64,000 nucleotides of DNA from an uncultured Candidatus Saccharibacteria bacterium (GTDB lineage Bacteria > Patescibacteriota > Saccharimonadia > Saccharimonadales > Saccharimonadaceae): contig CAMMYO010000001.1 in the NCBI GenBank assembly GCA_946527885.1, forward strand, positions 578 through 64,577, read 5' to 3'. The notes under the pieces were generated by a model. The model was not told the DNA's origin and made no database searches. It saw nothing but the letters and a program-made list of their open reading frames with translations. Both the position numbers and the translations under genes were made by a program. Positions 2,766 through 40,264 of this stretch are shown piece after piece; position 1 is the first letter of the stretch; every line of letters begins with the position of its first letter.

Positions 2766-2777
2766 TAGAATAAATTC

Positions 2778-22962: not shown

Positions 22963-24381
22963 ATGGAAAAAACATATATCACAACAGCTATTCCGTATGT
23001 CAATGGTAAACCGCACCTTGGTCATGCGATGGATTATTTGCTTGCGGATGTCCTGCGTCGATATATGATGATGCGAGGCAAAGATGTGCGCCTTCAGGCT
23101 GGCACCGACGAGCATGGTAGCAAGATTTTTAAAAAGGCTGCCGAATCGGGTGTTCCGGTCCAGCAATATGTTGATGAAAATTCGCGGAAATTCCAAGATT
23201 TCATTCACTCGCTCGACGTTGAGTATACGGACTTTGTCCGTACGACTGACGAAGATCATGAGCGCCGCTGTCAAGAAATCTGGAAGAAACTCTCCGATCA
23301 TATCTATAAAGATAGTTACGAGGGCTGGTATTGCGAAGGTTGCGAACGCTTCGTGACCGACAAAGAGCACGAAGAGAACGCTGGTATCTGCCCGGATCAC
23401 CAGAAGCCGTACCAAAAACTCAGCGAAGAGAACTACTACTTGCGTATCGCGGATTTCAAGGATGATATTCGTGAAGCGATTGAGTCGGATCGTCTCAAAA
23501 TCACGCCGACCTTCCGCAAGAAAGAATTTCTGAATCTCTTGGCCGACATGCCTGACGTCTCGATTTCGCGTCCGAAGGCTCAAGTTGAGTGGGGTGTTCC
23601 GGTTCCAGGCGACGAAGATCAGGTCATGTATGTCTGGATCGATGCGCTTTCGAATTACATCACAGTGCTCGGCTATCCAGAAAATGATATCGCTGATTCT
23701 TGGCCGGCCACTACTCAGATTATCGGCAAAGATATTTTGCGCTTCCATGCCGGAATTTGGCCAGCCATCCTGATGGGTCTTGGTCTAGAGTTACCGCGCA
23801 ATCTTCTCGCGCACGGCTTCATTAATGTTGACGGTCAAAAGATGTCCAAGAGTATCGGCAATGTGATTGCTCCAGAAGAAATCATCGAAAAGCACGGCCT
23901 CACGCCATTCCGTTACTACTTCTTGCGTCACGTCTCGACGACCGACGATGGCGACTTTACCTGGGATAAATATGAAGCGGCTTACAATGAGTTAGCTAAT
24001 GATCTCGGCAATCTCGTCCAGCGCCTCGCCACGCTTTGCGGCAAAAATAGTGTTACGGTCCAATATTCAGATAAAGCAGAAAAAGATTGGTCTGCCGATT
24101 TTGTAAAGCGCATGGATGCTTACGAATTCAATACTGCCTTCGATATTCTTTGGGAGCAAATCCAAGCCATCAACAAGGATCTTGAAGAGCAAAAGCCATG
24201 GTCGCTTGCTAAGACTGAGCCGGAAAAAGCTAAGGAAGTTCTCGGTCGCGAAGTTGAATGGCTTCTTGATATCTGTAATGATCTTAAAATCTTCCTTCCG
24301 GAGACTACGGAAAAGATCATCGAAATCTTTACCGCCGACGAAATCAAAGCTCCGGCAACTCCGCTCTTCCCGAAGAACTAA
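22963..24381 (+). CDS. metG: methionyl-tRNA synthetase (short form without C-terminal tRNA-binding domain)
   Basis: HLGHAMDY (HIGH) and KMSKSIGN (KMSKS). Preceded by TGtTACAAT plus 6 nt, with no Shine-Dalgarno. Confidence 0.95.
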   Translation: MEKTYITTAIPYVNGKPHLGHAMDYLLADVLRRYMMMRGKDVRLQAGTDEHGSKIFKKAAESGVPVQQYVDENSRKFQDFIHSLDVEYTDFVRTTDEDHERRCQEIWKKLSDHIYKDSYEGWYCEGCERFVTDKEHEENAGICPDHQKPYQKLSEENYYLRIADFKDDIREAIESDRLKITPTFRKKEFLNLLADMPDVSISRPKAQVEWGVPVPGDEDQVMYVWIDALSNYITVLGYPENDIADSWPATTQIIGKDILRFHAGIWPAILMGLGLELPRNLLAHGFINVDGQKMSKSIGNVIAPEEIIEKHGLTPFRYYFLRHVSTTDDGDFTWDKYEAAYNELANDLGNLVQRLATLCGKNSVTVQYSDKAEKDWSADFVKRMDAYEFNTAFDILWEQIQAINKDLEEQKPWSLAKTEPEKAKEVLGREVEWLLDICNDLKIFLPETTEKIIEIFTADEIKAPATPLFPKN

Positions 24382-24409
24382 AAATACCGCCCGCGAAGGG
24401 CGGTATTTT
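24380..24409. terminator. bidirectional intrinsic terminator
   Basis: AAAA-TACCGCCC-gcgaa-GGGCGGTA-TTTT between convergent metG and the LtaS-family gene. Confidence 0.75.
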
Positions 24410-24415
24410 GATGTT

Positions 24416-26323
24416 TTAATTATCGTGCCAATATTTCTTGCCACCAAGAATATCGTAGGTTAGCAGCTCGTAACTACGCATAAGCTCTGCATTGTCCTCG
24501 AATTCGCGACCGTCAACCCAAGTTTGCGCCAAGATCGGCTCAGCACTACAAACGTCGTCCAATAAGTAATAGCGCGAATTCTTTTGCCAGCCCAACTCAT
24601 TAAGCATCGTATTTATCATGCAGTTTGGCGATGTTGTCGGCAAATCATTATTTTTGAAGCCAGCATCATAGTTCGCGTAGAAGAAATAAGGAGTAATGCG
24701 TGACAAATCGCGTACCTCTTTTTCTTCGTGCTCATTGGTCAAGCTATACACGCCCGGAGAATGGTCGCCGTAGAAAAGTACGACCACCTTCTTTTCGAGC
24801 TGATCGAGCTCACTGATAAACTCTCCGAGATACTCGTCTGAACTATGGATAGTTTGCATATAGGTCTCAATTTCGCGTCGCTTAGACTCGTCGAGCTGAG
24901 TCGTATACTCGTTGTCGAGCAAGTTGAAGTTGTGCGTCTCGTAGTTTTCGTAATTGTATGGCGTGTGGTTCTGCATCGTGATTAGGCCGACAACTTGTTT
25001 GTCGCCGCCTTCGCGTAAAGTTTTCAAAACTTGCTGATAAGCAGAGCGATCGTTAATGTACTCGGAATTGCCGTCATGTTCGTCAAAATCCATTTCTAGC
25101 TCGGTAATAAACTCATCAAAGCCCTCATTCTTGAGCGCGATATTGCGCTTGTACATGCCGCCATTAAACGGATGAATCGCCGTGGTTGTATAACCTTCAT
25201 CTTTCAGCATGCTTGCAATGGAAGGCGTTTTCCCGCTTTTTGGAATTAAAGCTGTATATGGCACGGTATTTACCCAATAATTCGTCAGCCCAGTAAAGGT
25301 TTCAAACTCAATATTTGCGGTGCCACCACCATAGTCCAGCGTATACATCATGCCGCTCGGATATTGACTCTGAATGCGGTGCAAGTTTGGCGCCACTTCG
25401 CCGCCATCATGTGGGTAATAATCAGTAAAACTCTTCCCATTAAAACTAAAATCTGGATCAAAGAACGACTCGTTCAAGATAATTACGACGCTAACGTTTT
25501 GATCGCCAATCGCTGCGCGCTCGGTATTCTTTTCGCTCGCAATCTTGGTATATTTTTTCTCAATTTGCGAAATAATCGCCTCGTCGTATCCGTTCGGCTC
25601 TTCTAGCTGAAGTTTCTGTAGGTTGTACAAGAAGCCCAAAATAAAACCATTTTCATCGTAGTTGCGGTTCTGATTCCAAGCTGTAAAGCGCGTACCTAGA
25701 AAAATATCCTGATATCGCGAGCCGTCATTGTGGCGCGCAAAATCGCTCGCACGATAAAAACCGAGCATACCAATCACTAAAACCGCTAGACGGATACCTA
25801 AACAATATTTTTGCACAAAGTTACTTGCGCGCTTCGGCCGAGTCAAATGTAGGCGCCGCGCAAGCTTTTTATTAAAGAGAATGGTTAGCGTGATAACTAT
25901 CGCAATCGCCAACAGCAGTCGAACGATTGTCCAAATACTTACGAACTTTGATAGAGAATGCGCTTCGCTAGCTAGCTGAAAATCTTCCGGCAATAGCGGA
26001 GTGCCGCGCGAATTGTATTTCGCGATGTGAATGTAGCTCAAGATTGTTAGAAAGACCCAACTTGCGCCGACCGTTGTTCCGGCGGAGCCAACCAAGCCCC
26101 AGATCACGCAGAGTAATAGATACATTAGGAGTGAGTTAAAAAGAAAAGGGCGTGGATTGCTAAAGATAAAGTTCCACGTTCGCCACATGTCGTGGACGAA
26201 ATAGCGATATTCCAAAAACCAAGTCAAGAGAATAGCACCTACCATCAAAAACAGCAACGAGCAAATGCAATACTTTTGCCGATCAGTCAATTTCTGCCGC
26301 CATAAATGCTTAATTTTCTTCAT
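24416..26323 (-). CDS. LtaS-family sulfatase-fold phosphoglycerol/phosphoethanolamine transferase
   Basis: 635 aa. Five N-terminal TM helices and an extracellular sulfatase domain (ILNESFFDP, GGTANIEFETFTGL, MQNHTPY, FYGDHSPG). Confidence 0.75.
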   Translation of the reverse strand: MKKIKHLWRQKLTDRQKYCICSLLFLMVGAILLTWFLEYRYFVHDMWRTWNFIFSNPRPFLFNSLLMYLLLCVIWGLVGSAGTTVGASWVFLTILSYIHIAKYNSRGTPLLPEDFQLASEAHSLSKFVSIWTIVRLLLAIAIVITLTILFNKKLARRLHLTRPKRASNFVQKYCLGIRLAVLVIGMLGFYRASDFARHNDGSRYQDIFLGTRFTAWNQNRNYDENGFILGFLYNLQKLQLEEPNGYDEAIISQIEKKYTKIASEKNTERAAIGDQNVSVVIILNESFFDPDFSFNGKSFTDYYPHDGGEVAPNLHRIQSQYPSGMMYTLDYGGGTANIEFETFTGLTNYWVNTVPYTALIPKSGKTPSIASMLKDEGYTTTAIHPFNGGMYKRNIALKNEGFDEFITELEMDFDEHDGNSEYINDRSAYQQVLKTLREGGDKQVVGLITMQNHTPYNYENYETHNFNLLDNEYTTQLDESKRREIETYMQTIHSSDEYLGEFISELDQLEKKVVVLFYGDHSPGVYSLTNEHEEKEVRDLSRITPYFFYANYDAGFKNNDLPTTSPNCMINTMLNELGWQKNSRYYLLDDVCSAEPILAQTWVDGREFEDNAELMRSYELLTYDILGGKKYWHDN

Positions 26324-26416
26324 TTCTTCATTATATCATCTGTTGTTGGAGGCTGCTAGCGGGGTCAAACGAGCTTATGCTTGTGTAAAAATCGGTTCGA
26401 AAATATGCTCGTAAAT

Positions 26417-27880
26417 ATGAAAAGTAAAGTTCATTTTTCGGTCATCCCGCTAGCAATCGCCGTTGCATATCTTTTTGCTGCCATTGTCGTGCGTTTTGTG
26501 GGGCTCGCCATGGATCTTCCGCAATGACTGTGAATCTTTGTGTTTGTTTTTAGTCTTTTGGCTCTTTTCGCTCGAAATTTGCCAAGAATCCTGCTATCGT
26601 TTCTGGCTGGCTTTCTTGTGGGTTTTATTCAGCACGCGAACTATCTCAAAGGTCTGAATGATATTACTAGTCATATCGGCAAGAGCGTTCAGATTGAGGC
26701 TCAAATCACGCATGCGCCAGAAATAAAAAATGGCTCACAAACCCTGCGAGCGAACATTATATCCTTTAATTATAGCATAAACGATATAAAAAGTCAAATT
26801 TATCTATCGCTACGGTCGCAAACCGAACTGAAGCAGGGCGACGCGGTCATTGTTCGCGGGGAAATAATGCCGGGTTTCGGCAGCTACGTAGTTTCGATGC
26901 GTCAGGCGAATCTAGTCGCAATTCGACCTCGGGCGCCAACATTGATCGATTGAGCTCGGACTACTTTTTCGTCTCGATTAGAGGGCGTGTTTTTGGATGA
27001 AAAATGCTCATCGCTCGCGCTCGCATATCTTGTCGGCGACAAGCAGGGAATCGATGAGAACTTTCTAGATCAACTGCGCGCCGTCGGACTTTCGCACATA
27101 ATCGTAGCTTCTGGCTTTCACCTGGCAACTATCGTAGGCGTCATTCGGCGCCTTCTTGGTAAAGTATCGCGTTTCGCTGCGACAACTGGCTCGATTTTAC
27201 TAATGGTTTGCTATATTGTGCTAGTCGGTTTAAGTGCGAGCATGCTACGAGCGAGCATCGTTACAATGTTGTCGATTTGCTTCGGTTATTTTGGTCGTAG
27301 ACTGCATCCGTGCCGAGCGATAATTTATGCTGCGACCATCTCGTTGTTGTTTAGGCCAGACTTTCTGACTGACGCGGCGTGGCTACTATCTTTCGCATCG
27401 TATATTGGAATCGTGATATTTCGACCGATTATTCAAAAATTCTTCTACGGTCGACAGAAACCGCCCGCTCTTTCGGATATGATTTTGACTACGATTTCAG
27501 CCCAGCTGGCCTGCACCCCGATATCGCTCTTCTTTTTTGGTAGCATATCGTTTTTGGGTGTTTTGGCAAACATACTCATCTCTCCGACTATTCCAATCGT
27601 GATGGGTGCTAGTTTCATGGTAGTCATTTCGCCTTCGGCCGTTGCGGGGTTAGTCGCGGTTCTCGCAAAGGGAATTCTTCGTTTGCAAATGCTAGCCGTG
27701 AGCTTTCTCTCCGAATGGCGCTGGGGTATTCTTGTGGTCGATAAAAATGAGCCGAGAGTACTGCTGCTTTATGTCGGAATTGTGCTACTGATTCTAGCGA
27801 TGACTCATCGCGAACGCTTTCGCTTTCGTCGACGCCGACTAGATAAAACGTCAAAATATGGTAAAATATATTCATGTTAA
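26417..27880 (+). CDS. comEC: DNA internalisation channel ComEC (DUF4131 plus competence domain, no beta-lactamase domain). The frame is interrupted by in-frame TGA at 26525-26527, 26531-26533 and 26951-26953.
   Basis: One frame is open from ATG 26417 to TAA 27880 apart from three TGAs. It reads ...AMDLPQ-X-L-X-IFVFVFSLLALFARN... and ...RAPTLID-X-ARTTFSSRLEGVF...LAYLVGDKQGID...GLSHIIVASGFHL. The track shows only the fragments 26540-26953 and 26987-27880. Confidence 0.65.
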
Positions 27881-28278
27881 TCCGTTCCGAGTCAGAGATG
27901 TTGGCTTTTGGTGAGCGCGTTGCGTCTCAACTCGAGGCGCCTATTTTGATAGAGTTAGTCGGCGATGTCGGTGCTGGCAAAACTACCTTCACGCGCGGTC
28001 TAGCGCACGGTCTTGGCGTAAAAGAAGCAATTACCTCTCCTTCATTTACGATTTCAAAGTCTTATCGCGGCGAAAAAGCGGATTTAGTTCACTATGATTT
28101 CTATCGCCTTGGCGATCCTGGCATTATGCTCGAAGACTTGGCTGAGTCAATTTCCGATCCGAGAGCTGTTACTGTCGTGGAATGGGCGGACAGTATTCGT
28201 AATATTCTGCCAGAGCAACATAAGACTATTATTATAAAATATATCGACGAAAATACAAGGGAGGTAATTGAGCGATGA
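27874..28278 (+). CDS. tsaE: tRNA t6A37 biosynthesis ATPase TsaE
   Basis: GDVGAGKTTFTRGL Walker A, SPSFTI, HYDFYRL. Ends in TGA inside an ATGA overlap with tsaB. Confidence 0.9.
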   Translation: MLIRSESEMLAFGERVASQLEAPILIELVGDVGAGKTTFTRGLAHGLGVKEAITSPSFTISKSYRGEKADLVHYDFYRLGDPGIMLEDLAESISDPRAVTVVEWADSIRNILPEQHKTIIIKYIDENTREVIER

Positions 28279-28607
28279 AGCTATATCTCGACACTTCGAC
28301 CGCGCAAACCGTTTTGCGCTTGGACGATAAAGAATATCTGTGGGATTCTGGCCGAACCTTGGCAAGGGATTTACTAAAATACATCCATGATTGCTTGGCC
28401 GAGCAGGGTGCAGACTGGACCGATTTAATGGAACTCCACTTTTTTGCTGGCCCAGGCAGCTTTACAGGGCTTCGCATTGGTGCCACGGTCATAAATACGC
28501 TTGCCGATCAACTCAAAATCCCGCTCTATAACCAGAGAGGCGAAAAAGTAGAGCTCGTCATGCCTGAGTATGGCCGTCCGGCGAATATTACTCCGCCGCG
28601 CAAATAG
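28275..28607 (+). CDS. tsaB: TsaB-like protein, truncated to the N-terminal half
   Basis: 110 aa. MKLYLDTS...GPGSFTGLRIGATVINTLA. Confidence 0.75.
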   Translation: MKLYLDTSTAQTVLRLDDKEYLWDSGRTLARDLLKYIHDCLAEQGADWTDLMELHFFAGPGSFTGLRIGATVINTLADQLKIPLYNQRGEKVELVMPEYGRPANITPPRK

Positions 28608-28693
28608 TCACTACCGTTGGCATATCTTTTCTTCAGATGATATACTTAAAGGGGGATTTTAAGTTTAATTTTTATTGTTAGAAAAGAGGATAA

Positions 28694-30211
28694 ATGGAAT
28701 TAGTTTACGCGATAGTCGCGCTAATCATTGGCGCTGGCGCTGGCGTAGGTGGTTTTTACGCATACAGTAAAAACAAAGAGAAAACCGGCCAGAACAAAGC
28801 GGACGAAATCATTCGCAAGGCGAAGCATGAGGCTTCGGAGATTGTTTTGAGTGCAAAGAAAGAAGCCTCCTCGGTTTCCGATAAAGCTCAGAAAGAGGAA
28901 AACGAACGTCGCCGCGAGTGGAAAAAGACCGAAGACCGCCTAGTCGAGCGCGAAACTTTGCTCGACAAAAAGCTTGACCAGCTCGACAAAAAATCTGAAA
29001 ATTTACGCGCGCAGGAAGCTGAAATCGAGAGCTTAAAGAGTGAAATTCGCGAGATTCGCACCAAAGCCCAAGAGAAGCTCGAGAAGATTGCTGGTCTGAC
29101 GAAGGCTGATGCGAAAGAGAAGCTTATGCAGATGACCGAAAAAGACATCAAGCACGACTTGGCTGAGTTGGTTATCAAGGAGCAGAAAGCTATCAAAGAA
29201 AACGCAGACGATACCGCAGAAGCGATTTTGCTGACCGCGATGGAGCGTATGTCTTCCGAGGTTACTGCTGACCGCACGGTTACAAGCTTGAAACTTCCGG
29301 ATGACGATATGAAGGGTCGCATTATCGGTAAAGAGGGGCGCAATATTCAGGCCTTGCAACATGCTACTGGCGTCGACGTGCTTGTCGATGATACTCCAGG
29401 CATGGTTGTTTTGAGTAGCTTCGATCCGATTCGTCGTCAGGTTGCACGCTATGCGCTTGAGCGTCTCATGAAGGACGGTCGCATTAATCCGTCTTCGATT
29501 GAAGATGCGGTCGCCAAGGCCGAGCGCGAAATCGAGAAGGAAGTTATGCGCGCCGGCGAAGATGCCGCTCGCGAGGTCGGTATTGTTGGTATTCCGACCG
29601 AAATCTTGCACTTACTGGGCGAGCTAAAGTTCCGCACTAGCTACGGCCAGAACGTGCTTTTGCACTCGATTGAAATGGCCCACATTGCGGGCATGATTGC
29701 TAAGGAAATCGGCGCCGACGTCAACATCGCAAAGACCGCTGCTCTTATGCACGATATGGGCAAGGCCGTCACTCACAAGATTGAAGGCAAGCATGCCGAT
29801 ATTGGCGCAGAGCTCGCTAAGAAATATGGCATGAACGATCGTGTCGTGCACGCAATTGCGGCTCATCATGATGATATTGAGCCAACCACACCAGAGGCTA
29901 TTATTATCAAGATTGTTGATGCAATTTCCGCTGCTCGTCCAGGCGCTCGCAATATCTCTGCTGAAAACTTCGCCGAACGTATGCGCGCGCTCGAAAATAT
30001 CGCCACTGGCTTCCCGGGTGTCGACAAAGCCTATGCGATTTCCGCTGGTCGCGAGATTCGCGTCATTGTTGAGCCGAAGACGGTCGACGACCTATCGTCT
30101 CTGAAGCTGGCGCGCGATATTGCTGACAAAATTGAAGCAACGATGCAGTATCCTGGCGTCATTAAGGTTAATGTGATTCGCGAAACCCGCGCAATCGAAT
30201 ACGCTAAATAA
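28694..30211 (+). CDS. rny: ribonuclease Y
   Basis: N-terminal TM helix, coiled coil, KH domain (GRIIGKEGRNIQAL) and HD domain (HSIEMAHIAG...HDMGK). Confidence 0.95.
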   Translation: MELVYAIVALIIGAGAGVGGFYAYSKNKEKTGQNKADEIIRKAKHEASEIVLSAKKEASSVSDKAQKEENERRREWKKTEDRLVERETLLDKKLDQLDKKSENLRAQEAEIESLKSEIREIRTKAQEKLEKIAGLTKADAKEKLMQMTEKDIKHDLAELVIKEQKAIKENADDTAEAILLTAMERMSSEVTADRTVTSLKLPDDDMKGRIIGKEGRNIQALQHATGVDVLVDDTPGMVVLSSFDPIRRQVARYALERLMKDGRINPSSIEDAVAKAEREIEKEVMRAGEDAAREVGIVGIPTEILHLLGELKFRTSYGQNVLLHSIEMAHIAGMIAKEIGADVNIAKTAALMHDMGKAVTHKIEGKHADIGAELAKKYGMNDRVVHAIAAHHDDIEPTTPEAIIIKIVDAISAARPGARNISAENFAERMRALENIATGFPGVDKAYAISAGREIRVIVEPKTVDDLSSLKLARDIADKIEATMQYPGVIKVNVIRETRAIEYAK

Positions 30212-30279: not shown

Positions 30280-31128
30280 ATGAGCGAGAAAAGCGCTAAT
30301 CTTCAGGGTGGTCAAAATACTGAGGAAAATCAAGAGAATAAAACAGATTATAATTTTCGCGCCGAAAATATCAATCAGCGTGATGAGTCTGCGCTTTTTG
30401 CGCACGTTCGCGAAGACATGGAAAAGCAGGCGATTGAACAGCGCCAGGCGAAACAAGAACTCCGCAGCCAGTACAAGCAAGAGAAGAGTGAAGCCGCGCA
30501 ACGGGCTCGCAGCGAAAAAGAAGCTGCCGCCAAAATGCGCGCCGCAGAAAAAACTCAGATTCGCGAGGCTCAGAAAGCCGTCCGCTTCACGCGCCGCCGC
30601 GAGCGCAATGCAAAAATCAAGGAATTCATTTTTGGCGGCTGGCACAAGTATGTCTTCTGGACTGTCATCTTTCTGGTTGTCGCAATCTCTGTAAAAGCAA
30701 TCATGTCCATCAACTTCAAAGTCGCCGAAGAAAAACAAGCCGAATATACATCAGAAATCGCAAAAACCAGCAATGAATATCTCGAAATGTATAGAGAGTT
30801 TGAAAAGACTAATGATGCGGGCGCTATGGTGTCAAAATATGAGGAGGTGCTCAAAAATACAACTCCGAATCAAATCGAGTATCGCACGGCTGCGATTCAA
30901 TACGCGAAAGTCTTGCAAATGGGCGGAAACTATAAAGAAGCAGTTGAACTGCTTAAGAGTATAGAAAAATATGCCGAATCGGACAGTGAACGGCGATGGA
31001 TTTATATTGGTATATATGAAGCTAGCAGATTAGACGATGATTTGTCTGCCGAAACTGAAAGCTATGGTAAGAAAATTCAATCACTAAACAAGTCGATAAA
31101 TGATGGAGACCCGTATGAAGAAGAGTAG
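30280..31128 (+). CDS. module A1: bitopic membrane protein with a charged K/E/A/R-rich N-terminal region, one TM helix and a helical TPR-like C-terminal domain
   Basis: 282 aa. TM segment is YVFWTVIFLVVAISVKAIM. Preceded by TGcTAAAAT plus 6 nt. Its 3' end overlaps the next gene by 14 nt. Confidence 0.75.
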   Translation: MSEKSANLQGGQNTEENQENKTDYNFRAENINQRDESALFAHVREDMEKQAIEQRQAKQELRSQYKQEKSEAAQRARSEKEAAAKMRAAEKTQIREAQKAVRFTRRRERNAKIKEFIFGGWHKYVFWTVIFLVVAISVKAIMSINFKVAEEKQAEYTSEIAKTSNEYLEMYREFEKTNDAGAMVSKYEEVLKNTTPNQIEYRTAAIQYAKVLQMGGNYKEAVELLKSIEKYAESDSERRWIYIGIYEASRLDDDLSAETESYGKKIQSLNKSINDGDPYEEE

Positions 31129-34100
31129 TACACGCGCAATATTAACGGCCGCTATTCTCGCGTTGGCATTCGGGGGGCGCACGAGTGCTGAGCAGGTTGT
31201 CGCGAATCCTCATGCCGGCTACTGCAATAAAACCTCCGAAGTGGCATTCAAGTCGTGGACCGATGAGCAGCACGGCTGTTTTTCCAGTGGTCTTGGCTGG
31301 GTTTACTATAAATTTTCTGACGAATTTCAGGCTCTAACGCCAGATAAGAGAAAAGAAATTATAAAACATTTGTTCGTGGGGCCAGGCACCAGTACGGGTA
31401 ATCTTACTGACGAATCGATGGTTGGCGGCGGCAATGGCGGCTGGTGGTCTGTAGCGGGTCTGAGCGATTGTTTTTCTAGCGCGCCTAGTCGCAAGAACCC
31501 TGACGGCTTCTACCGTTTTGGCATGATTCAATATAAAACCTCATCGTCATTCGAGGCGAGCGACTCCAACAGTGATGGCTGGAAGTCGTTTAGCACTCTC
31601 GTGTCCGGCGACGTTGCCGGTGCTATGCTTACTGGTAACCAGCCAAGAACTGCAACTAACGGTAGCTGGAGTACTGATCGTCAAGATGGTAGCGGAAACT
31701 TAGCCACCACTCATCTTAGCCAGGAAATTAGAATTTCGGGAACTGACACGGTAAATAATGCGACATATAATAAGTTCCTAGTGGCCACTGCTGTTAGTTT
31801 TACGGACGCTATAAACGACGAGGCTGCTGGCGGCATCAAGTCCGAGTATGATGAGATGTTAAATGAAACAGGGCTAAGCAATCACTGGGAACAAGATGGT
31901 GACGGCAAAGCGGTTATGTCGTTCTGTGGTTACGGCTCCGGTATAGGCGAACAAGATGCCTATTTCAAAGGCTCGGTCGCAATCAATATTGGCGGAACAT
32001 CCGTAGTCACAAGTAGCGATCCTGATGCAAATCCTATTCCGTCTGGGAGCAAAGAATATCCGACCAATGTTTCGAACCAAACCATCACGCTCACCTATAC
32101 TTCTCAGCCAGCCGGCTCGACAGCAAAGCCAAAATATTCGGTGTCGTACACGGTCGAAAAGCGCAACGCTGATGGCTCCTGGACGCAAGTTGGAACGGAT
32201 TCCAAAAATGACATTACGGCTAGCAATACTACTACATTCTCATCCACTACGAGTGGCAGCCCGCTAAATATTACGCTTAACTATGGCGAAGAGTATAAAA
32301 TTTGCGCCTATAATTCATACCACAGCAAGGCGACCTATCAGAATATCAATTATCCAGTCTACGGCAGTGTCCAAAAAGTTAGTGCCTGTGCTACGATTAC
32401 GCGCCCACTTCTGACTTCCGAGCTCCACAGTATGGCCTTTGCTAAAATCGATGGTACTCAATACAACTCAAGCCAAGACGGAACTGGTTCGATTGACGCA
32501 AACCCGTCCACTGCCACCATTGATCCAATTTTGGTTGAGCCGGGTACTTCGCATACGGTTGAGTTATGGAACAATCTGACCCGTACTAACGCAGTTTTTG
32601 ATACGACTTTTAATACTACCTATAACGGAGCAACATCGTCGGTGACCATGGCCAATCATGTAGGTAGCTACGATTTTACTCACCAGAATGAAACGGTTAC
32701 TTTACAACCGCAAGAGGAACGAGATTATTCGACCGAGCTTACGCATCCGGCTCAAGTTAATAACAGACCAGAATCCATCGGTTCGCGCACTTCAAAGCTA
32801 TCGTTTAAGATTCGTGGTAAAGATTTTGAATGTAACTCGGATTTTGGCAGTTACAAGAAATTTGGCGTCAAGGACGGTTATAACATGTCCATCGTCAAGG
32901 TAACGAACGGTCGCCAGACTGTCGGTACTACGAACTACGCTTACGATGGCGACGACAGCAATACGGTTTCTGTTTGGGCGAGACCTAACGATACTATTCA
33001 ATTTACGCATCTCGTTTGTGCGGGCGCGACTTATACAGCCTACAAAAAGAACGACACTGCGACGGAAGGAAAAACCAAATATATCGCAAGCGCCGCTAGC
33101 GACTTGAATACCGGTAACTTCCTGTATGGTTCTTCGTTTACGGCAGCGAATACTCAAAATCTCGTCACGGATCCGATTGGTAATTTCTTGAACTCCGACA
33201 AGGAAAAATCTCCTCGCTATACCTTGAGTGTAAACTCGCCTTCAAGCTCCTCGACTGCGGTTACTGTTAATGATCTCGGCTCTACGATTAGCCAGAAAAT
33301 GACCTGGTCGAATATTGCCTATGTTGGCGGTAATCTTGAGCGCAATGGCGGTAGCGACAAAGAGGCAACCGCAGAAGTAAAGATTCCATATAACTATGTC
33401 TTGAAACCATCCGTTTCGATTGGCGGCTCAGAAGACGAGCATGTTATGCCAGGCATGAATCTAAATATTTCCGGATCGTTGAATGTCGACGGTCGTCAAA
33501 ACAAAGACATTAAAACGAGCGACGGCATTCTTTTGGGCGCTTACGCCACTAATACGCGCGCTACTGAAACTCGCTTGATTGTATTTTCTTCGGAAAACGG
33601 AATGACATCCAGCGGCGTAAAGTATGTTTCTGGTGATGCCGGCCTAAGCGACGGAACACTCTGTAGCGAGGCGGCTGGATCGGTTAACTGCTCGTCGCAT
33701 TATCGTCTCAGTACTGAGAGCGGCGAGGTCTATGGTGGTGGCGATCATAGTAGTCTAATTAGCGGGACGCACACGGTTGCGCTCGACGGCATGAAGGTTG
33801 GTACGCATATTTGCGCCATTACCGCCAGTTATCCTGCCGATAGTCATGCGGCACCGACTGCTAATTTTCCAGACAACGCACCGGCTCTCGGTAGCAATAT
33901 CCCTAGCGGTTCATACTGGGCGGTATCTGCGCCGGCCTGTGTTACGGTAGCAAAAAAGCCAACTGTAAGTGTCGAAGGTGGCGATCTCTTTGTAAAGGGC
34001 GACATTATTGCGTCACACACGAAGCGCGGTCCAAATCCGGACGAAAATTACTTTGGCTCATGGGCGGAATACGGTGTTATCTCGACCGGCTCTATCTATG

Positions 34101-35029
34101 GCTTTAGCTCTGGTGCTGCTACCGCATACGCTGCGGGTGGCTCGTTAGTTAGCATAAATGAATCTAGAACTGCTGCTGGCATGTCGAACGCAAAGAGTCC
34201 CGCCGAAGAGGGTGAGACGCGCTGTCTCTATAATACGCAAACTTTCGCAAACTTAAACTGTATCGAGACAGGAGATGGTGCGATTGGAAATGTAGATGGC
34301 ACGGCAATTGCTTCGAAAGTATCGGCTTATGCTAGGGATGTAATCGCTCGCTTTACGCCAACCGACAAGACTAATAACGATCCATTTACCGGGAACATCA
34401 GCGGCTGTACCTTAGATGACGGATCTTATGTAAATGGCGACGGGAACAACAACTATAGTTGCCGCACGGACGGTATTGCAACCTTCTATCGTGATGGCGA
34501 TACGACGCTTAATGGCATTAGTAGTTTGTCGATGCCTCGCGCTGATAATAAGACTCTCGTTATCTTTATTGATGGCACGCTTACACTAAACGGAGACATA
34601 AAAATCAGCAATGGTTCATATTCTAGCGTTATGGATGTTCCGAACGTTGTCGTAATCGCTCGCAATATCAAGATTTCGCAAAGCGTAAGTACGATTGATG
34701 CGTGGCTAATATCCGGCTACAATGATGCGGCGGCAGAGGATGGCGAGATCGATACGTGCTACGAATATGCCGCTGACAGCTTAAACTCGGAGCGGTGCGC
34801 GAAGTCGCTTATCGTGAATGGTATGACTTTGGCTAAAAAACTGAGCCTAAAGCGTACCGCCGGTGCCGGCACAGACGAAAATAGCCAATCATTTGGCGCA
34901 AATCACTACATTAAACGAGCGGAAATCTTTAATTTGCCAGCAACAAATTACTATTGGGGCTATGGCAGTGCTTCGAAGAGCAACGCTATGCGCACTAACT
35001 ATATGCGCGAAATTCCATCGCGCTACTAA
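31115..35029 (+). CDS. module B1: giant secreted Cys-containing, Asn/Thr/Ser/Gly-rich protein (1304 aa), paralog of 35843-40264
   Basis: Sec signal MKKSSTRAILTAAILALAFGGRTSA/EQ, with GGAG 6 nt upstream. Long uninterrupted ORF. Conserved blocks shared with B2 include PTVSVEGGDLF, CLYNTQTF, IDAWLIS and RAEIFN...YYWGY...EIPSRY. Confidence 0.85.
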   Translation: MKKSSTRAILTAAILALAFGGRTSAEQVVANPHAGYCNKTSEVAFKSWTDEQHGCFSSGLGWVYYKFSDEFQALTPDKRKEIIKHLFVGPGTSTGNLTDESMVGGGNGGWWSVAGLSDCFSSAPSRKNPDGFYRFGMIQYKTSSSFEASDSNSDGWKSFSTLVSGDVAGAMLTGNQPRTATNGSWSTDRQDGSGNLATTHLSQEIRISGTDTVNNATYNKFLVATAVSFTDAINDEAAGGIKSEYDEMLNETGLSNHWEQDGDGKAVMSFCGYGSGIGEQDAYFKGSVAINIGGTSVVTSSDPDANPIPSGSKEYPTNVSNQTITLTYTSQPAGSTAKPKYSVSYTVEKRNADGSWTQVGTDSKNDITASNTTTFSSTTSGSPLNITLNYGEEYKICAYNSYHSKATYQNINYPVYGSVQKVSACATITRPLLTSELHSMAFAKIDGTQYNSSQDGTGSIDANPSTATIDPILVEPGTSHTVELWNNLTRTNAVFDTTFNTTYNGATSSVTMANHVGSYDFTHQNETVTLQPQEERDYSTELTHPAQVNNRPESIGSRTSKLSFKIRGKDFECNSDFGSYKKFGVKDGYNMSIVKVTNGRQTVGTTNYAYDGDDSNTVSVWARPNDTIQFTHLVCAGATYTAYKKNDTATEGKTKYIASAASDLNTGNFLYGSSFTAANTQNLVTDPIGNFLNSDKEKSPRYTLSVNSPSSSSTAVTVNDLGSTISQKMTWSNIAYVGGNLERNGGSDKEATAEVKIPYNYVLKPSVSIGGSEDEHVMPGMNLNISGSLNVDGRQNKDIKTSDGILLGAYATNTRATETRLIVFSSENGMTSSGVKYVSGDAGLSDGTLCSEAAGSVNCSSHYRLSTESGEVYGGGDHSSLISGTHTVALDGMKVGTHICAITASYPADSHAAPTANFPDNAPALGSNIPSGSYWAVSAPACVTVAKKPTVSVEGGDLFVKGDIIASHTKRGPNPDENYFGSWAEYGVISTGSIYGFSSGAATAYAAGGSLVSINESRTAAGMSNAKSPAEEGETRCLYNTQTFANLNCIETGDGAIGNVDGTAIASKVSAYARDVIARFTPTDKTNNDPFTGNISGCTLDDGSYVNGDGNNNYSCRTDGIATFYRDGDTTLNGISSLSMPRADNKTLVIFIDGTLTLNGDIKISNGSYSSVMDVPNVVVIARNIKISQSVSTIDAWLISGYNDAAAEDGEIDTCYEYAADSLNSERCAKSLIVNGMTLAKKLSLKRTAGAGTDENSQSFGANHYIKRAEIFNLPATNYYWGYGSASKSNAMRTNYMREIPSRY

Positions 35030-35103: not shown

Positions 35104-35865
35104 GTGCAAGGTCAAAATAACGAAAGCGGAAACGACTCCGCAGACTTGAATTTCAAGTCGTCCGATATTCAGCAGGGCGACGAAGGTCAGCTTTTTGTTA
35201 ACGTCGAAGGCGCCGAAGAACGCGCCGCTGAAGAAGCTGAAGCAAAAGCAAAAATAGAGGCTGAGGAACGTGCCAAACAGGAGGCCGAGCAACGCACTCG
35301 CGCCGCCGAGGAGCATGCCCGCCAAGTCGCCGAACAAAAAGCCGAAAAAGCCCGCCTTGCCAAAGAAAAGAAACTCGCCAAAAAAGCCGCCGGCTCCAAC
35401 GGCGCCAGCAAAAAGAAAAAAATCGCAATCGCCTCTGTTGCGGCTGTAGTCGTGTTGGCGGGCGTCGCAGCACTCGCTATATTCTCAACGCCAAAAGTTG
35501 ATGGTGACTCCGATGCCGATCCTAGCGAGATGCATGTCGATACAGAACGCGATTTTACTGCAAGAGCCAGGATTTCTGCTAACGAAGAGATAATTAGCAA
35601 ATATGAGAATGACCCGTATTTTGGAAAAGAAGAGGCCTATGCTGAATACGATAAAAATATCGAATCCGTCGGTGACGATAGGGAGGCAAAAACGGTCTGG
35701 AGGAATTTTAAAGTAGACTTTGCTTATAATTTTGTAAAAAACAAAAAAGAAGCGAAGGAGTTTTATGAGGAGATGTGTGCAATAGATAACATGACTGAGA
35801 AAGAGTCGAACTTGTGCATTAATCAAGAAAGGATTTTCTGGGATGACGAAAATGGGTCGAATTAG
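35104..35865 (+). CDS. module A2: bitopic membrane protein with the same architecture as A1
   Basis: GTG start after GGAGG. AEERAAEEAEAKAKIEAEERAKQEAEQR charged region, TM segment IAIASVAAVVVLAGVAALAIF, helical C-terminal domain. Overlaps the next gene by 23 nt. Confidence 0.75.
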   Translation: MQGQNNESGNDSADLNFKSSDIQQGDEGQLFVNVEGAEERAAEEAEAKAKIEAEERAKQEAEQRTRAAEEHARQVAEQKAEKARLAKEKKLAKKAAGSNGASKKKKIAIASVAAVVVLAGVAALAIFSTPKVDGDSDADPSEMHVDTERDFTARARISANEEIISKYENDPYFGKEEAYAEYDKNIESVGDDREAKTVWRNFKVDFAYNFVKNKKEAKEFYEEMCAIDNMTEKESNLCINQERIFWDDENGSN

Positions 35866-38800
35866 AAGATGTATATTCAGCTGCTTCTTAGTAGCGCTAC
35901 TGATTCAGTTGGCGTCAATATATAACGCATATGCGGCGCTGCAATTTGATACGGGCGGCGGCGGTGGCGCTAGTGGCTGTAGTGGCGGTACTGCGTTCTC
36001 GGCAAACTTTCCAAGTACTCAATCGATATGTCATTATCAGAACAGCAATATATTTTCTGTTCCTGTTTGGGTTGAATATAAGTTTTCTAATAATTTCATA
36101 AAAGCGGCTAGAAATGGCGACAGAACAGTCTTTAGCGCCGCTGATTTGCAAAATATATATAACGGCTTTTTCTTGTCGCCTGGCAATAACCGAGATGGCG
36201 GGGTAAAAAAGCTGGGTGGTGTCGAAAGCTGCGTGACTAGCGGCGGAAGCGGTTTTTTCCGACTAGCAAACCTAGAGGCAAAGTATAATTTCTTTTATGA
36301 CACTCAAGAAGGCAATGGGCATGCGCAAGAGGCGAAGTATTCTGATACGGCAAGCCTAAATGATATGGTTATATTCACGGTAGTTGCGCCGAAAGATGTT
36401 AACTACTATAACAACGTAGAATCTAAAAAAACTAATCCAAAGACTGCGGATGATTATTATGGGTCAATCTTGAGGTACGCCCCTATTGGAACAAATACTC
36501 TATACGGCTTTGATGGCGGTGCAGCTGGTCTTAATTCATGGCGTGTAGTTAACTACAATGACTATGTGAGTAGCTTTACGAGTAGCAACTTCACCAACAA
36601 TGACAACTGGGGGCAATACGTATATTACGGCGGAATTGACGGAACGCATCTAATCGCATCTGCTGAAGGTAGAGGCGCCTTTACTTCGCCGACTGTGAGC
36701 TCGGGAGAGCCTTACGCGTATAAAAAATATAAGCAACATGGCGGCTCGTGGGATTTGAATACATTTAACGGTAGACCTGGTGGTACTGTAGATTTGTCAT
36801 CTGGTGTCCGTTCTTTCTGCGCCTACCCAGAAAAAACTGAAAATACATACAGCGGGTCAACGAAAGTCTTCTACAAAAAGGGCGCCGCAGATGAGCAGTC
36901 ATCAGCTAATACGAGTCATGCAGTCGTCAACATTGCCCCAGAAGACGATACGGTTACTGTTGTAAAACAATACACTATTGGACGCGAAGGCAGCGGTACT
37001 ATTAATGCGAAGATTAAACGCGATTTAGACAATGATTGGATATCGTTCGCGCCGGGATCTAAAGACGAGACTGAGACCAAGTCGATTGAACCTGGCGGCA
37101 CGGTCGAGTTTTGCGCCGAAATGAAATACTACAAGAAGGCCGTTAAAGAGACCGGCGATCCTAATTATACGGAAGAAGGCGAAGCAAACAAATCCTGTCT
37201 AACCTTCTATCGCCCATATTACGTAACGGACATCGATGGTGCTATCGAGTCCAAGGTCTATGAAACGTCATCGCAGTCTAGCGCTTATGTCGCGTCGCCA
37301 AACCCTGTCGAACACGTAGACTACAAAAGTCCTAGCCTTTCGAAAGAAGTAATTGTCGACGAGCCATATGCCAAGGTAAACTTTACGCCATACATCTGCC
37401 GCCACAACAGTAAGTACGCCGCACAAGAAATCCCTAGTGGCGCTACCTATTCAAATAACTTTAAGTTGACCTATTACGAGGATGGCGCCTGGACAGTCTC
37501 TGGCGCAACTCCAAGAGCTGTAAATATTTCCATTGGCAAAGTTAGCAGTATAGACGGGACCTGTGAACGTAGCGGTGGGCCAAGCTGGCATACATTCGCG
37601 TCAGACATCACAAGTTCGCATGAAACGGGCGAGTTGCAGCCGGGCGAAGCTAAAACCTACAAGGAGTCGATTACTTACCCAGAGCGAGTCGATAATGCTG
37701 GCAACTCAAAGGCCGGAAATAAATCTGTCGATCTCGAGATCACCGTCCGCCGCCGCGGCTTCAAATGTGTTGGTTTCGAAGGAGGCTACAGCTTCTTCGG
37801 CCCTAGCAAAGGCGCCAACATGGCTAAGATTACTATTGCGGATTCTACTAATACCAACCTTAACGATAATAACCCTAACAGGCGCCAGGCTAGCACGGAT
37901 AATTATCCAGGTGGCGGAACGACGGATAACGCTGTTCTATTTACGAAACCTAATCGCAGAATTCGATTCGAGTATAATGCCTGCGCTGGCGGCGCCTATG
38001 CAGTGGCAAAGTCTAGCGAAGGCGACGGATGGGGCGACACGCAATTTATAATCTCGAATCCTAGTGATCCGAACGGTAATGGTTTGTTTGGTTTTCGTCC
38101 TGAATCTCAGCAGGATCTCGATGAGGGTAACAAGATTGTGCTTGAATATGGTAATACTGGAAATCTAAACAGAAACGGCTATCAGAAAAGAATCACGTCT
38201 AATCATGGTGCTACTCCAGCTGTATCTGCTCTAAATACCGCAATAGCCTCATTCCTGACGGACAAATATAGAGAGAACGAATATCCGATAAATAGCGGAA
38301 GTATGGTTTTGCCGAAATATACTCTCGCCGAAAAGCTTTGGTCTCCGGGTGGCAAATCTGATGGTTTGCCAATCGAATCCGACAATGTAGGTCAATCCAT
38401 CAAGCGTCAGATTGAATGGAAAAACCTCGAAATGAATTATGGCTCGAAAACGACAGGAGAAAATTCAGTGGCGACTGCAGAGCTGCGCGTTCCGTACAAC
38501 TACTATCTAAACCCTACTGTTGATATTAACTTTGGTAACGATTACTATGTGAGGCCGGGCCAGGTCATTGACAAGCTGGATATCGACCTCGGCGTCATGG
38601 ATCGTAAAAACGAGCAAGTTGGTGAAACATACGCCACGAAAATTAAACCGACAACAATCCAGGTGAGCTGGTTTAAGATGACTGGCAGCGTAGATAGTGG
38701 AAGCGTTTCGAGCAGCGGCAAGCTTAAGCGCGGCGAAATCGCGGCGAGATCTATTTGCAACGAGGTTTCATCGCGTGCTAGTGAATGTACCGAGGTGGAA

Positions 38801-40264
38801 ATTTTAAATGATGAAGTTAGAGACAAGACTAATGACAAAATTAATTTGAGCACAGAGACTAATAGGAAGAGTATTCCGTTCAATAATGTTAAACTGGGCG
38901 ACACTGTTTGCTATGTTGCGTCCGTATATCCATACGACAGCCATGCTGTAATTAGAGCTGACGGCAAGCCGTACTTTAACGCCGAAAACGCCACTCAACC
39001 GGATGCAGCTTCGGCAATCGATGACACCGACCAGTCGCATGCTCTTCAAAAAGAAGCGGACAGCAATGACTATACCTATATCTCTGCGCCGATCTGTCGC
39101 AACATTGCAAAGCAACCAACCGTTAGTATCGAAGGTGGCGACTTGCTAGTCGGTAAAGCTATCAAGACCTCGAACTTCCGCTTCTATCCAAATCCAAACG
39201 ATTTGACCAACGGTAGCACAATCGGCTCGTGGTCTGAATATGGTGCCTTGGTTGGCGGAAAAGAAGCAACTTTTGTGCGCAGAACTACAAACTTCGCCAC
39301 GGGTGCTACGACTGCCTATGGAAAAGACACGACGGTAAGCACAATTAATCAAAGAAGTGTCGACGCTGGCTATGTGAAGAGTCTAAATTCTGGCACCGAT
39401 ACGGATGGTACTTTGTGTCTGTATAATACGCAGACAATTACAAATAACGAGTGTGCTAGCGGTAAGACTGGTATTGATCCTAGCACGGAGTCCGAGACGG
39501 TCTATGACAAGGTGGCCAAAAATGTCGCCCGTCTTGTAACTGCTCTCAAGACGAAATATCGTAATGCTTATTCTAAAGTCGCCACGAACGGCACTAATAA
39601 CTATACGTTTAAGGGTTGCGCAATTGCGGAAGGAGAGACTGAGTATAGTGTAGTTGCTGGCGGAACGAACTATAGTTGTCGTCCAAACGACGGTGTTGCA
39701 TATTTGCACTTTGGCAGCAGCGCAGACAGTGAAGCGATCAAGACGATTGACTCGCTTAGTATTACTTGGCCGGACAATAACTCTAATCGTACTTTGATTA
39801 TTGACGCCAATAACAATAATTTGATCATTAAGAGCAACATTGTTTCCTATTACGAAACATATAGCAAGCTATCGAAGGTTCCGAACGTGATCATATTCGC
39901 TAAAAACGTATTTATTGATCCGTCCGTAGAAAGAATTGATGCTTGGATTATTTCCAGCAATGACTCTTCGGAAGGAGACGGATTGATTAATACCTGCTAC
40001 GGAACGAGTGACGCAAATCAGGATAGTGACGACTGCAAATACCAGCTCGTGTTCAATGGTCCGGTTATCGCAAGGAATCTCGAATTGAGGCGCTCTTATG
40101 GCGCCGGCACCGGAGAAGATGAATCATTCGACAGCGATCGCTTCATTCAGCGCGCCGAAATCTTCAACATGAATCCACTGCCGTACTACTGGGGCTATAA
40201 CCAGACGGTTATCGAGAGCACGCTAAAGACTACCTTCTCAAAGGAAATTCCGTCACGTCTGTAG
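35843..40264 (+). CDS. module B2: giant secreted protein (1473 aa), paralog of 31115-35029
   Basis: Sec signal ...LIQLASIYNAYA/ALQ. Uninterrupted 4.4-kb ORF. Collinear similarity to B1 along its whole length, strongest in the last ~390 aa. Confidence 0.85.
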   Translation: MTKMGRIRRCIFSCFLVALLIQLASIYNAYAALQFDTGGGGGASGCSGGTAFSANFPSTQSICHYQNSNIFSVPVWVEYKFSNNFIKAARNGDRTVFSAADLQNIYNGFFLSPGNNRDGGVKKLGGVESCVTSGGSGFFRLANLEAKYNFFYDTQEGNGHAQEAKYSDTASLNDMVIFTVVAPKDVNYYNNVESKKTNPKTADDYYGSILRYAPIGTNTLYGFDGGAAGLNSWRVVNYNDYVSSFTSSNFTNNDNWGQYVYYGGIDGTHLIASAEGRGAFTSPTVSSGEPYAYKKYKQHGGSWDLNTFNGRPGGTVDLSSGVRSFCAYPEKTENTYSGSTKVFYKKGAADEQSSANTSHAVVNIAPEDDTVTVVKQYTIGREGSGTINAKIKRDLDNDWISFAPGSKDETETKSIEPGGTVEFCAEMKYYKKAVKETGDPNYTEEGEANKSCLTFYRPYYVTDIDGAIESKVYETSSQSSAYVASPNPVEHVDYKSPSLSKEVIVDEPYAKVNFTPYICRHNSKYAAQEIPSGATYSNNFKLTYYEDGAWTVSGATPRAVNISIGKVSSIDGTCERSGGPSWHTFASDITSSHETGELQPGEAKTYKESITYPERVDNAGNSKAGNKSVDLEITVRRRGFKCVGFEGGYSFFGPSKGANMAKITIADSTNTNLNDNNPNRRQASTDNYPGGGTTDNAVLFTKPNRRIRFEYNACAGGAYAVAKSSEGDGWGDTQFIISNPSDPNGNGLFGFRPESQQDLDEGNKIVLEYGNTGNLNRNGYQKRITSNHGATPAVSALNTAIASFLTDKYRENEYPINSGSMVLPKYTLAEKLWSPGGKSDGLPIESDNVGQSIKRQIEWKNLEMNYGSKTTGENSVATAELRVPYNYYLNPTVDINFGNDYYVRPGQVIDKLDIDLGVMDRKNEQVGETYATKIKPTTIQVSWFKMTGSVDSGSVSSSGKLKRGEIAARSICNEVSSRASECTEVEILNDEVRDKTNDKINLSTETNRKSIPFNNVKLGDTVCYVASVYPYDSHAVIRADGKPYFNAENATQPDAASAIDDTDQSHALQKEADSNDYTYISAPICRNIAKQPTVSIEGGDLLVGKAIKTSNFRFYPNPNDLTNGSTIGSWSEYGALVGGKEATFVRRTTNFATGATTAYGKDTTVSTINQRSVDAGYVKSLNSGTDTDGTLCLYNTQTITNNECASGKTGIDPSTESETVYDKVAKNVARLVTALKTKYRNAYSKVATNGTNNYTFKGCAIAEGETEYSVVAGGTNYSCRPNDGVAYLHFGSSADSEAIKTIDSLSITWPDNNSNRTLIIDANNNNLIIKSNIVSYYETYSKLSKVPNVIIFAKNVFIDPSVERIDAWIISSNDSSEGDGLINTCYGTSDANQDSDDCKYQLVFNGPVIARNLELRRSYGAGTGEDESFDSDRFIQRAEIFNMNPLPYYWGYNQTVIESTLKTTFSKEIPSRL

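Follow-up and report, generated by a model that had tools for sequence, protein, structure and literature searches.

In-frame UGA codons in comEC of a rumen Saccharibacterium are very probably read as an amino acid while UGA still acts as a stop elsewhere

Can a gene that is crossed by three stop codons still give rise to its full-length product? Saccharibacteria are thought to depend on DNA uptake for nucleotides and for gene exchange, and the question is raised here by comEC (26417..27880, + strand) in a 64,000-nucleotide stretch of DNA, hereafter the window, from an uncultured Candidatus Saccharibacteria bacterium of the family Saccharimonadaceae (GenBank assembly GCA_946527885.1, contig CAMMYO010000001.1). 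The window comprises bases 578..64577 of a 78 kb scaffold from a sheep-rumen metagenome (ENA ERZ28612978, SAMN02144230). We report that UGA is very probably read as an amino acid in this gene, whilst remaining a stop codon elsewhere in the same DNA, a conclusion that draws on comparison with related loci (referred to by L numbers, with positions in a locus after a colon).

The frame comprises 487 codons followed by TAA, its last bases overlapping the start of tsaE at 27874. Full-frame translation revealed no TAA, TAG or frameshift, and three TGA codons are the sole interruptions, at precisely the positions reported in the initial annotation: codon 37 (26525..26527; following base, +4, C), where the second hydrophobic helix begins (LPQ-X-L, X denoting TGA); codon 39 (26531..26533; +4 = A); and codon 179 (26951..26953; +4 = G), which lies in the linker between the DUF4131/OB and Competence domains, two codons 5' of the near-invariant Arg181. 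Under translation table 11 only fragments result, again as first described: the ATG opens a frame of 36 aa, GTG 26540 one of 137 aa and GTG 26987 one of 297 aa. With Trp placed at the three sites the protein matches the Competence membrane-channel domain (PF03772; residues 205-463, 27029..27805; E = 4e-43, 148 bits vs a cut-off of 23), with its invariant residues kept, and the OB-fold segment DUF4131 (PF13567; residues 34-150, 26516..26866; E = 6e-9, 36 bits vs a cut-off of 31.6), so that the complete ComEC-like layout proposed from the sequence is borne out by Pfam. It also carries the N-terminal K-x-H-x-S-V motif and helix common to homologues, and keeps 19 of the 19 invariant columns of a 27-sequence alignment in which the window sequence is included. 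No C-terminal metallo-beta-lactamase domain was matched (PF00753 or PF12706), and the Saccharibacteria homologues are also without one. Whichever residue occupies these positions, a typical short ComEC results; the gene departs from the definition of ComEC/Rec2 in that the three TGAs prevent it from being a single uninterrupted open reading frame (ORF) under the organism's code. TGG, as was also noted initially, encodes Trp three times in the same gene, and a promoter scan gave no clear comEC promoter.

The closest public relatives encode ComEC proteins 44-55% identical to that of the window, in syntenic loci containing metG, a sulfatase-family gene on the other strand, comEC, tsaE, a short tsaB-like gene and rny. 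Alignment with these orthologues, which the initial annotation had proposed as a check, showed that TGA is shared at columns 37 and 179. At codon 37 each of the five lineages that make up the window's clade carries TGA, in contexts that differ from one another (LPQ-X-L in the window, LPD-X-I at L083:419, LSA-X-T at L084:227, TLS-X-A at L001:9467 and YS-X-L at L004:10109), as does L089; in L090 this column reads TGG, and 10 homologues at greater distance have W. Codon 179 is TGA in three of the five lineages, reading LID-X-AR in the window, PFS-X-IR in L001 (9902) and PFT-X-LR in L004 (10538), the last context recurring in L086 (414) and L100. The same column is CGG (Arg) in L083 and L084, the nearest relatives, and Lys, Arg or Gln farther out. 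The TGA at codon 39 belongs to the window lineage only, where it is also present in contig L101. Among the clade lineages the non-synonymous divergence (dN) of comEC is 0.4-0.5 and the synonymous divergence (dS) is above 1.8 or saturated, and stops shared over such distances must be old rather than recent.

The gene for an LTD-domain surface protein (1284..2768, + strand) shows the same defect and, as claimed initially, is the only other gene in the window to do so. It runs from ATG 1284 to a TGA-TAA end at 2763-2768, and two UGAs must be decoded, at codon 13 (1320..1322; +4 = C) within the signal peptide (KFALL-X-LSIF) and at codon 321 (2244..2246; +4 = A; EQEN-X-SLTFAPTPG). The encoded protein comprises a signal peptide, an LTD domain (Pfam LTD, 2e-12), Cys-rich repeats and a C-terminal membrane anchor. 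Both TGAs occupy the same columns in all three orthologues compared, namely the window gene and those of two clade relatives that are 59% identical to it (L106:6984 and L106:7893; L107:3081 and L107:3990), with frames intact to the anchor; TGA is found at the second site in L017 and L025 as well. Between L106 and L107 dS is 1.9, and omega (dN/dS) is 0.079 between the two TGAs and 0.038 after the second. The column of TGA 2244 is Trp in 117 of 117 other homologues, is TGG in L016 but TGA in its close relative L017, and the only three homologues without a residue there end exactly before that column. The most conserved part of the LTD protein is its C-terminal part, which lacks a separate signal peptide. 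Next downstream of the LTD gene comes ruvC (window 2778..3272, + strand), and ruvC and ruvA follow it in L106 (8425..9550), the order being conserved. As regards the putative link of the LTD protein with DNA uptake that was tentatively suggested initially, the comparison shows no more than that comEC and LTD are both hit repeatedly in relatives and that LTD adjoins ruvC-ruvA.

To place the window in a wider context, 80 Saccharibacteria comEC loci from reference genomes and 18 extra metagenome loci were surveyed. In all of these loci a single frame is free of TAA and TAG along the whole gene, and among about 90 comEC genes neither of these stops nor any frameshift was found. With a single exception (L031), the TGA-bearing genes fall inside one 25-tip superclade of gut and rumen Saccharibacteria, within which a TGA-free subclade of 7 species is nested. 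The 17 TGA-prone lineages of the superclade have 26 in-frame TGA vs 70 TGG codons in comEC; the 73 other species, including the 7 nested TGA-free ones, have 1 vs 496. Upon single-base mutation of these genes TGA would account for 23-27% of nonsense changes, TAA and TAG being about three times as frequent, and the probability that at least nine independent comEC stops, as counted by parsimony on neighbour-joining trees of one protein, should all be TGA is therefore about 5e-6. Within comEC the TGAs are heavily concentrated in the N-terminal 40%. The trait is one of the whole gut/rumen superclade and, within the sampled DNA, is limited to comEC and one LTD gene.

Two further observations concern the 5' part of comEC. 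In L016 (5288), L017 (9797), L027 (9896), L092, L094 and L005 TGA stands at codon 2 or 3 (e.g. ATG AAA TGA ATT), which could reflect read-through immediately after initiation or, alternatively, a mini-ORF of two codons preceding an unusual start. In the widespread P0005 cluster (923 member sequences), to which L005 is nearest, the called start lies immediately past the TGA column where the first helix ends, suggesting that a TGA at that position may be fixed in a common, widely sampled population.

That UGA retains its function as a terminator is evident from tsaE (27874..28278, + strand), the gene that follows comEC. Its 134 aa product matches positions 2-127 of the 128-position profile, and it ends on a TGA at the end of the Pfam domain within an ATGA overlap with the next gene, an arrangement kept in relatives; UGA therefore still terminates in this genome. 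Together with tsaE, about 7 other window genes end on TGA, which is the stop codon of about 10% of genes. Of 64 long window ORFs, 38 end on TAA, 16 on TAG and 10 on TGA, although three of these ten represent the internal comEC/LTD TGAs and a further one belongs to a spurious ORF across a tRNA. As a terminator TGA is rare across the group (window and L001-L082), contributing 2-12% of stops at 44-47% G+C, which is low for the composition and compatible with weak UGA termination. Decoding of TGA is needed in 2 of about 62 window genes, comEC and LTD, and in no other long frame, many long ORFs (e.g. those of 1309 and 1473 aa) being free of the codon. The two ORFs of this size (31100..35029 and 35843..40264, + strand) have no Pfam match and no in-frame TGA, and a comparable unannotated gene block is found downstream of rny in L001.

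Beyond the window, 140 other genes in the superclade loci, screened as best-scoring, non-overlapping ORFs, contain 469 TGG codons and no real internal TGA. Sixteen TGAs were flagged by this screen, and all proved to be true stops, upstream DNA or shadow frames; even if they are counted, the comparison with comEC gives a Fisher p of 4e-12. Amongst the rejected candidates, an apparent 693-aa gene in L005 is tilS ending on TGA with the next gene in frame behind it, TGAs near the C-termini of screened ORFs are true stops, and TGAs at codons 20-40 of several ORFs lie in non-coding upstream DNA, often in TGNTATAAT promoter boxes read as X-Y-N. Strings of the types X-Y-N, W-Y-N and C-Y-N occur upstream of many genes (L025, L030, L033, L041, L053), where they correspond to TGNTATAAT extended -10 boxes and give false TGA matches.

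With regard to the residue inserted, the initial annotation considered both Trp and Gly chemically sensible at all three comEC sites. Of these, Trp is upheld by TGG in relatives and by the uniform Trp of the LTD column, and Gly receives weak support. At the A-W-Y-F-G-R column (comEC column 290) L005 has TGA and L097, at a dS of 0.07, has TGG; L098 has TGA at the column of Trp436, a residue invariant within the window's clade; and the TGA of L093 (column 447) falls in a Tyr/Phe/Trp column. Gly is second commonest at column 290 (21 of about 90 sequences), the nearest relative there having TGG. The CGG found at codon 179 of L083 and L084 is one transition from TGG, although an ancestral Trp at this codon is not borne out, given Arg in the nearest relatives and Lys, Arg or Gln beyond. 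Cys is never the aligned residue at the UGA positions, where homologues have W, L/I/V or K/R/Q. Trp is thus the best-supported residue and, if the UGAs are read through, almost certainly the one inserted at the three comEC sites, in which case the peptides spanning them would be LPQWLWIF (LPQ-W-L-W-IF, covering codons 37 and 39) and LIDWAR, with EQENWSLTFAPTPGAPNQYQEFQSCPSGK as a further predicted peptide.

We therefore consider it moderately probable, from these comparisons, that UGA in comEC and LTD is subject to gene-specific read-through as Trp, in competition with termination and with the effect of lowering or conditioning output. Full-length ComEC would require an amino acid, almost certainly Trp, at all three UGAs and, given that UGA still terminates elsewhere, a UGA-reading Trp-tRNA would have to compete with release factor 2 (RF2) at these sites. 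The decoder may be the normal CCA tRNA acting as a near-cognate, a variant better able to read UGA (candidates being a tRNA-Trp(CCA) with a 4-bp anticodon stem or with A9C or G24A), or a minor UCA tRNA. Each UGA would pass a fraction of the ribosomes, yielding little full-length ComEC together with short N-terminal peptides; the early location of sites would make these abortive products short and cheap, and the output of ComEC and LTD would be set by the balance of tRNA-Trp and RF2. Both the read-through throttle using tRNA-Trp and the gene-specific recoding that had been put forward initially fit the comparative data. Moreover, TGA is retained at four sites in two genes despite saturated divergence, other Trp columns being TGG, which suggests, albeit on weak statistics, that the UGAs are maintained as an expression throttle or switch and are not merely tolerated.

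The base that follows the 29 internal TGAs is A 17 times, C 6 times, G 3 times and T 3 times, vs T 28, A 25, G 15 and C 9 for 77 genuine TGA stops, such that A or C occupies +4 in 23/29 and 34/77, respectively (Fisher p = 0.002). The excess of A is similarly marked relative to the background of first codon bases (A 31%, G 33%; binomial p = 0.002). In E. coli, A and C after UGA are reported to be leaky contexts. U at +4 is a strong termination signal (PMC5289835). No dedicated recoding element emerged: an Rfam search at E <= 1 matched no family, SECIS included, around the sites, and the 69 nt following eight sites gave folding z-scores from -2.8 to +1.7, with unrelated shapes and no common hairpin.

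A number of points weigh against read-through as Trp or against a selected role for it. Several comEC TGAs align with Lys/Arg/Gln or Ile/Val/Leu columns and not with Trp, although these are variable positions at which Trp may be acceptable. Retention of TGA at column 37 (7/8 lineages) is by itself not significant, given a G-to-A mutation bias, and the clustering of sites towards the N-terminus could reflect no more than the low cost of early truncation. Read-through of UGA in E. coli or B. subtilis amounts to a few percent; at such efficiency three read-throughs would multiply to a yield of about 1e-5 or less, requiring either that decoding is unusually efficient, or that very few molecules are enough and almost no ComEC is made. 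Unusually efficient read-through should, in turn, also extend the proteins whose genes terminate on TGA. Neither a release factor gene nor tRNA-Trp nor tRNA(UCA) was found in the window and about 1.4 Mb of fetched loci. Finally, GTG or TTG always occurs within 2-15 codons after codon 37, in a hydrophobic stretch, and TTG follows the codon-179 TGA directly in L004 and L086, so that restart is possible at these places.

Several of the same observations could be accommodated by identical decoding that serves no selected role. If UGA is leaky in this group, genes needed in trace amounts would gain TGG-to-TGA or CGA-to-TGA changes by drift, mostly near the 5' end, and the concentration of sites in the first part of comEC is what this would produce. 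The turnover of positions, the many columns that are hit, the differences between TGG and TGA amongst close relatives, the TGG of L090 at column 37, the nested TGA-free subclade and the rarity of TGA as a stop across the group all point the same way. Drift does not, however, readily explain why comEC 37 and 179 and LTD 13 and 321 stay TGA across lineages with saturated dS, nor why other Trp columns are almost never TGA; Trp322, for example, is invariant in the five-lineage alignment and is not TGA in any of 17 lineages. As TGG can only raise the yield, it should often have replaced TGA. On balance we regard drift alone as rather unlikely.

A less probable alternative, to which we attach a low likelihood, is gene fission, i.e. 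that the UGAs terminate and that a 36-aa helix, an OB protein of ~137 aa and a channel protein of ~300 aa are made by reinitiation and assemble non-covalently. Each stop is followed by a table-11 ORF with a start codon, codon 179 falls in the linker separating the two Pfam domains, and to the TTG codons that adjoin the codon-179 TGA of L004 and L086 may be added one in L083, two codons after the codon-37 TGA. The putative restart positions nevertheless vary, from 2 to 15 codons after codon 37 and from 1 to about 33 after codon 179, and in the window the sequence GAGGG is only 1 nt from GTG 26987. After codon 179 neither the window (GCT CGG ACT ...) nor L001 (ATC CGT ACT ...) has an ATG, GTG or TTG for at least 12 codons, and yet both keep the family pattern x-R-x-x-F/L-x-x-R-h (Arg181, F/L184, Arg187); because this pattern is kept without a start codon, the stretch must be translated. 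TGAs inside the channel domain (L005 column 290, L098 column 436, L093 column 447) and in an OB strand (L016/L017) are not at domain boundaries, and fission of LTD would leave its C-terminal part without a signal peptide. These considerations favour a full-length product made by read-through, with restart the less favoured route.

Changes that would act upon every UGA, or upon the message, are very improbable. A genome-wide code (UGA = Trp, code 4, or UGA = Gly, code 25) would explain the alignment of TGA with Trp, and UGA has been reassigned in other Patescibacteria, to Gly in Gracilibacteria/Absconditabacteria and to Trp in JAKLIH01 (PMC13092985). Against such a code stand the genuine TGA stops of tsaE and the other window genes and the 469 TGG codons, with no real TGA, of the 140 other genes; code 25 in particular is disfavoured, Trp being commonest at comEC column 290 and at the LTD site, with TGG in the nearest relatives and Gly only second at column 290. 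Selenocysteine finds no support in the Rfam/SECIS and hairpin searches, nor in the aligned residues, of which none is Cys. The TadA editing motif is TACG, and the A of each TGA is preceded by G, such that UGA-to-UGG editing of the mRNA (A-to-I) was dropped for want of the TACG context. Transcriptional slippage (no homopolymer), frameshifting (one frame open throughout) and acquisition from a code-4 or code-25 donor (the genes being syntenic and following the species tree) were likewise considered and dropped.

Still less credible is that comEC and LTD are ordinary pseudogenes, hit by nonsense mutations and decaying. The frames are indeed broken under the standard code, and comEC, unlike the adjoining housekeeping genes, may be dispensable. 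The lesions, however, are common to lineages at saturated divergence, consist of TGA only in about 90 comEC genes, and are accompanied by retention of all invariant residues. Relaxed selection was also not observed on either side of the shared TGAs, omega values there being about 0.03-0.33. For L016 vs L017, which share a TGA (dS 1.1-1.6), omega is 0.33 upstream of it, 0.057 in the N-terminal remainder after it and 0.031 in the channel domain, i.e. the C-terminal part. The corresponding values for L004 vs L086 are about 0.25 for the whole of comEC, 0.16 for the N-terminal part and 0.40, at a dS of only 0.06, for the C-terminal part, and that for the whole gene in L005 vs L091 is 0.27. Recent pseudogenisation by three TGG-to-TGA transitions, one of the options entertained initially, is contradicted by the saturated dS, the purifying selection and the lack of other lesions. 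Judged by these comparisons, comEC in the window is an intact gene that is kept by selection.

The remaining alternative, a sequencing or assembly artefact in which the true bases are TGG, has in its favour the nature of the source, a metagenome assembly joined into scaffolds, and the N-run that interrupts gatA immediately beyond the window, and can be set aside almost completely in view of identical DNA across the two N-terminal TGAs in a second assembly and TGA at the same columns in species from independent samples (ERZ12289772, UBA4387, OCVV, ERZ27292107, SRR30827614, ERZ28654209). The second assembly comprises AUXO contigs L101, 100% identical to window 23982..26714 and covering TGAs 26525 and 26531, and L088, 100% identical to window 27010..29042; both derive from the same metagenome project and were probably built from the same reads as the window. 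TGA 26951 falls between the two contigs, and is therefore covered by the window's own assembly only. The gatA gene (about 6890..8557 in L087, from the source scaffold just right of the window end) is called in pieces; it was rejected as a TGA-split gene, the cause being the N-run (a scaffold gap) with a frame change.

Downstream of comEC, a sigma-70-like promoter match with a TG extension (27840..27867, + strand) lies inside the 3' end of the gene, just upstream of the tsaE start, and transcription of the housekeeping genes behind it may therefore be independent of that of comEC. The tsaB-like gene that follows tsaE (28275..28607, + strand) encodes only 110 aa, with Pfam TsaD matched over residues 27-85 of a 264-position profile; its length is identical in L001, L083, L084 and L086, so that it looks like a conserved, strongly shortened TsaB. 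In L086 (2139..3645) a frameshift, perhaps an assembly error, divides RNase Y between two ORFs.

How do comEC and LTD compare with known cases of UGA decoding? The A1 protein of phage Q-beta is produced by UGA read-through by tRNA-Trp, and low-level reading of UGA as Trp is natural in E. coli and B. subtilis. The putative mechanism in Saccharibacteria shares with these systems the codon, competition between Trp-tRNA and RF2, coding constraint downstream, A at +4 and a full-length fraction set by read-through, as far as this can be judged from sequence. In contrast to Q-beta A1, the UGAs of comEC and LTD lie inside the bodies of cellular genes, with up to three per gene, and are conserved or recurrent across a bacterial clade whilst being confined to two genes. 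The hard-to-read sense codon TTA of Streptomyces, read by the dedicated and developmentally regulated tRNA of bldA, is found in few non-essential genes. The present UGAs are similarly limited to a small non-essential set (2 of about 62 window genes and none of 140 others); they differ in being stop rather than sense codons, and any regulation is hypothetical. As in selenoprotein genes, the in-frame UGA is gene-specific in DNA where UGA is otherwise a stop, but no SECIS-like element accompanies it, the homologous positions are occupied by Trp, Arg or Lys rather than Cys, and the sites lie in membrane helices and a signal peptide.

Reassignment of UGA to Trp (code 4) is found in Mycoplasmatales, endosymbionts such as Zinderia, Eggerthellaceae and JAKLIH01, a Patescibacteriota family of the class Minisyncoccia (PMC13092985, PMC13462651), and has been reported from Bacillota, Pseudomonadota, Verrucomicrobiota and Actinomycetota (PMC13462651); Saccharimonadia are not among the lineages reported. 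Code-4 systems read UGA by a near-cognate tRNA-Trp(CCA) with a 4-bp stem or by a UCA tRNA. UGA-reading variants of tRNA-Trp(CCA) are widespread in standard-code bacteria (34 bacterial phyla), the form whose anticodon stem has 4 bp increases read-through of UGA in E. coli, and one Saccharimonadia genome is listed with this form (PMC13092985). The superclade resembles code 4 in having TGA where relatives have TGG and in a low use of TGA as a stop, which precedes or accompanies such a change; it differs in that the phenomenon is not genome-wide, with TGA still terminating and 140 neighbouring genes free of in-frame TGA. Code 25 (UGA = Gly; PMC10746230 and references therein) involves the same codon, likewise in Patescibacteria/CPR (candidate phyla radiation), though the residue aligned here is Trp. 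Saccharibacteria are treated as code 11 (PMC10746230), and the window agrees with this outside comEC and LTD. The locus lacks the defining features examined here of a pseudogene, of genome-wide reassignment and of a selenoprotein gene, and the pattern resembles the proposed ambiguous-intermediate stage of a code change, frozen in a few genes. Our literature search found no report of in-frame UGA or of read-through in Saccharibacteria or in comEC.

One practical consequence is that annotation calls comEC and LTD as fragments: the database holds pieces of 295, 274, 278 and 304 aa for ComEC and of 292-299 aa for LTD, and ComEC would therefore be scored as broken or absent across a whole clade of Saccharibacteria. 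More generally, these loci offer a natural case in which UGA would be both stop and sense in one standard-code bacterium, in named genes and over a long evolutionary time, and make the ambiguous-intermediate model, and the role of UGA-reading tRNA-Trp variants (PMC13092985), directly testable. Should the UGAs act as a throttle or switch, this would be a new way of controlling competence. Tentatively, and with rather less confidence than in read-through itself, one may go further and envisage a stable dual state of UGA in a family-level clade, in which the codon terminates most genes but, in a small "UGA regulon" with ComEC and the LTD protein among its members, is maintained by selection as a conditionally decoded codon for Trp. 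If this were true, the regulon would be switched or throttled by the balance of tRNA-Trp and RF2 or by a specialised UGA-reading tRNA-Trp, and bacteria with very few transcription factors would have recruited a natural, long-lived ambiguous intermediate of code change for regulation.

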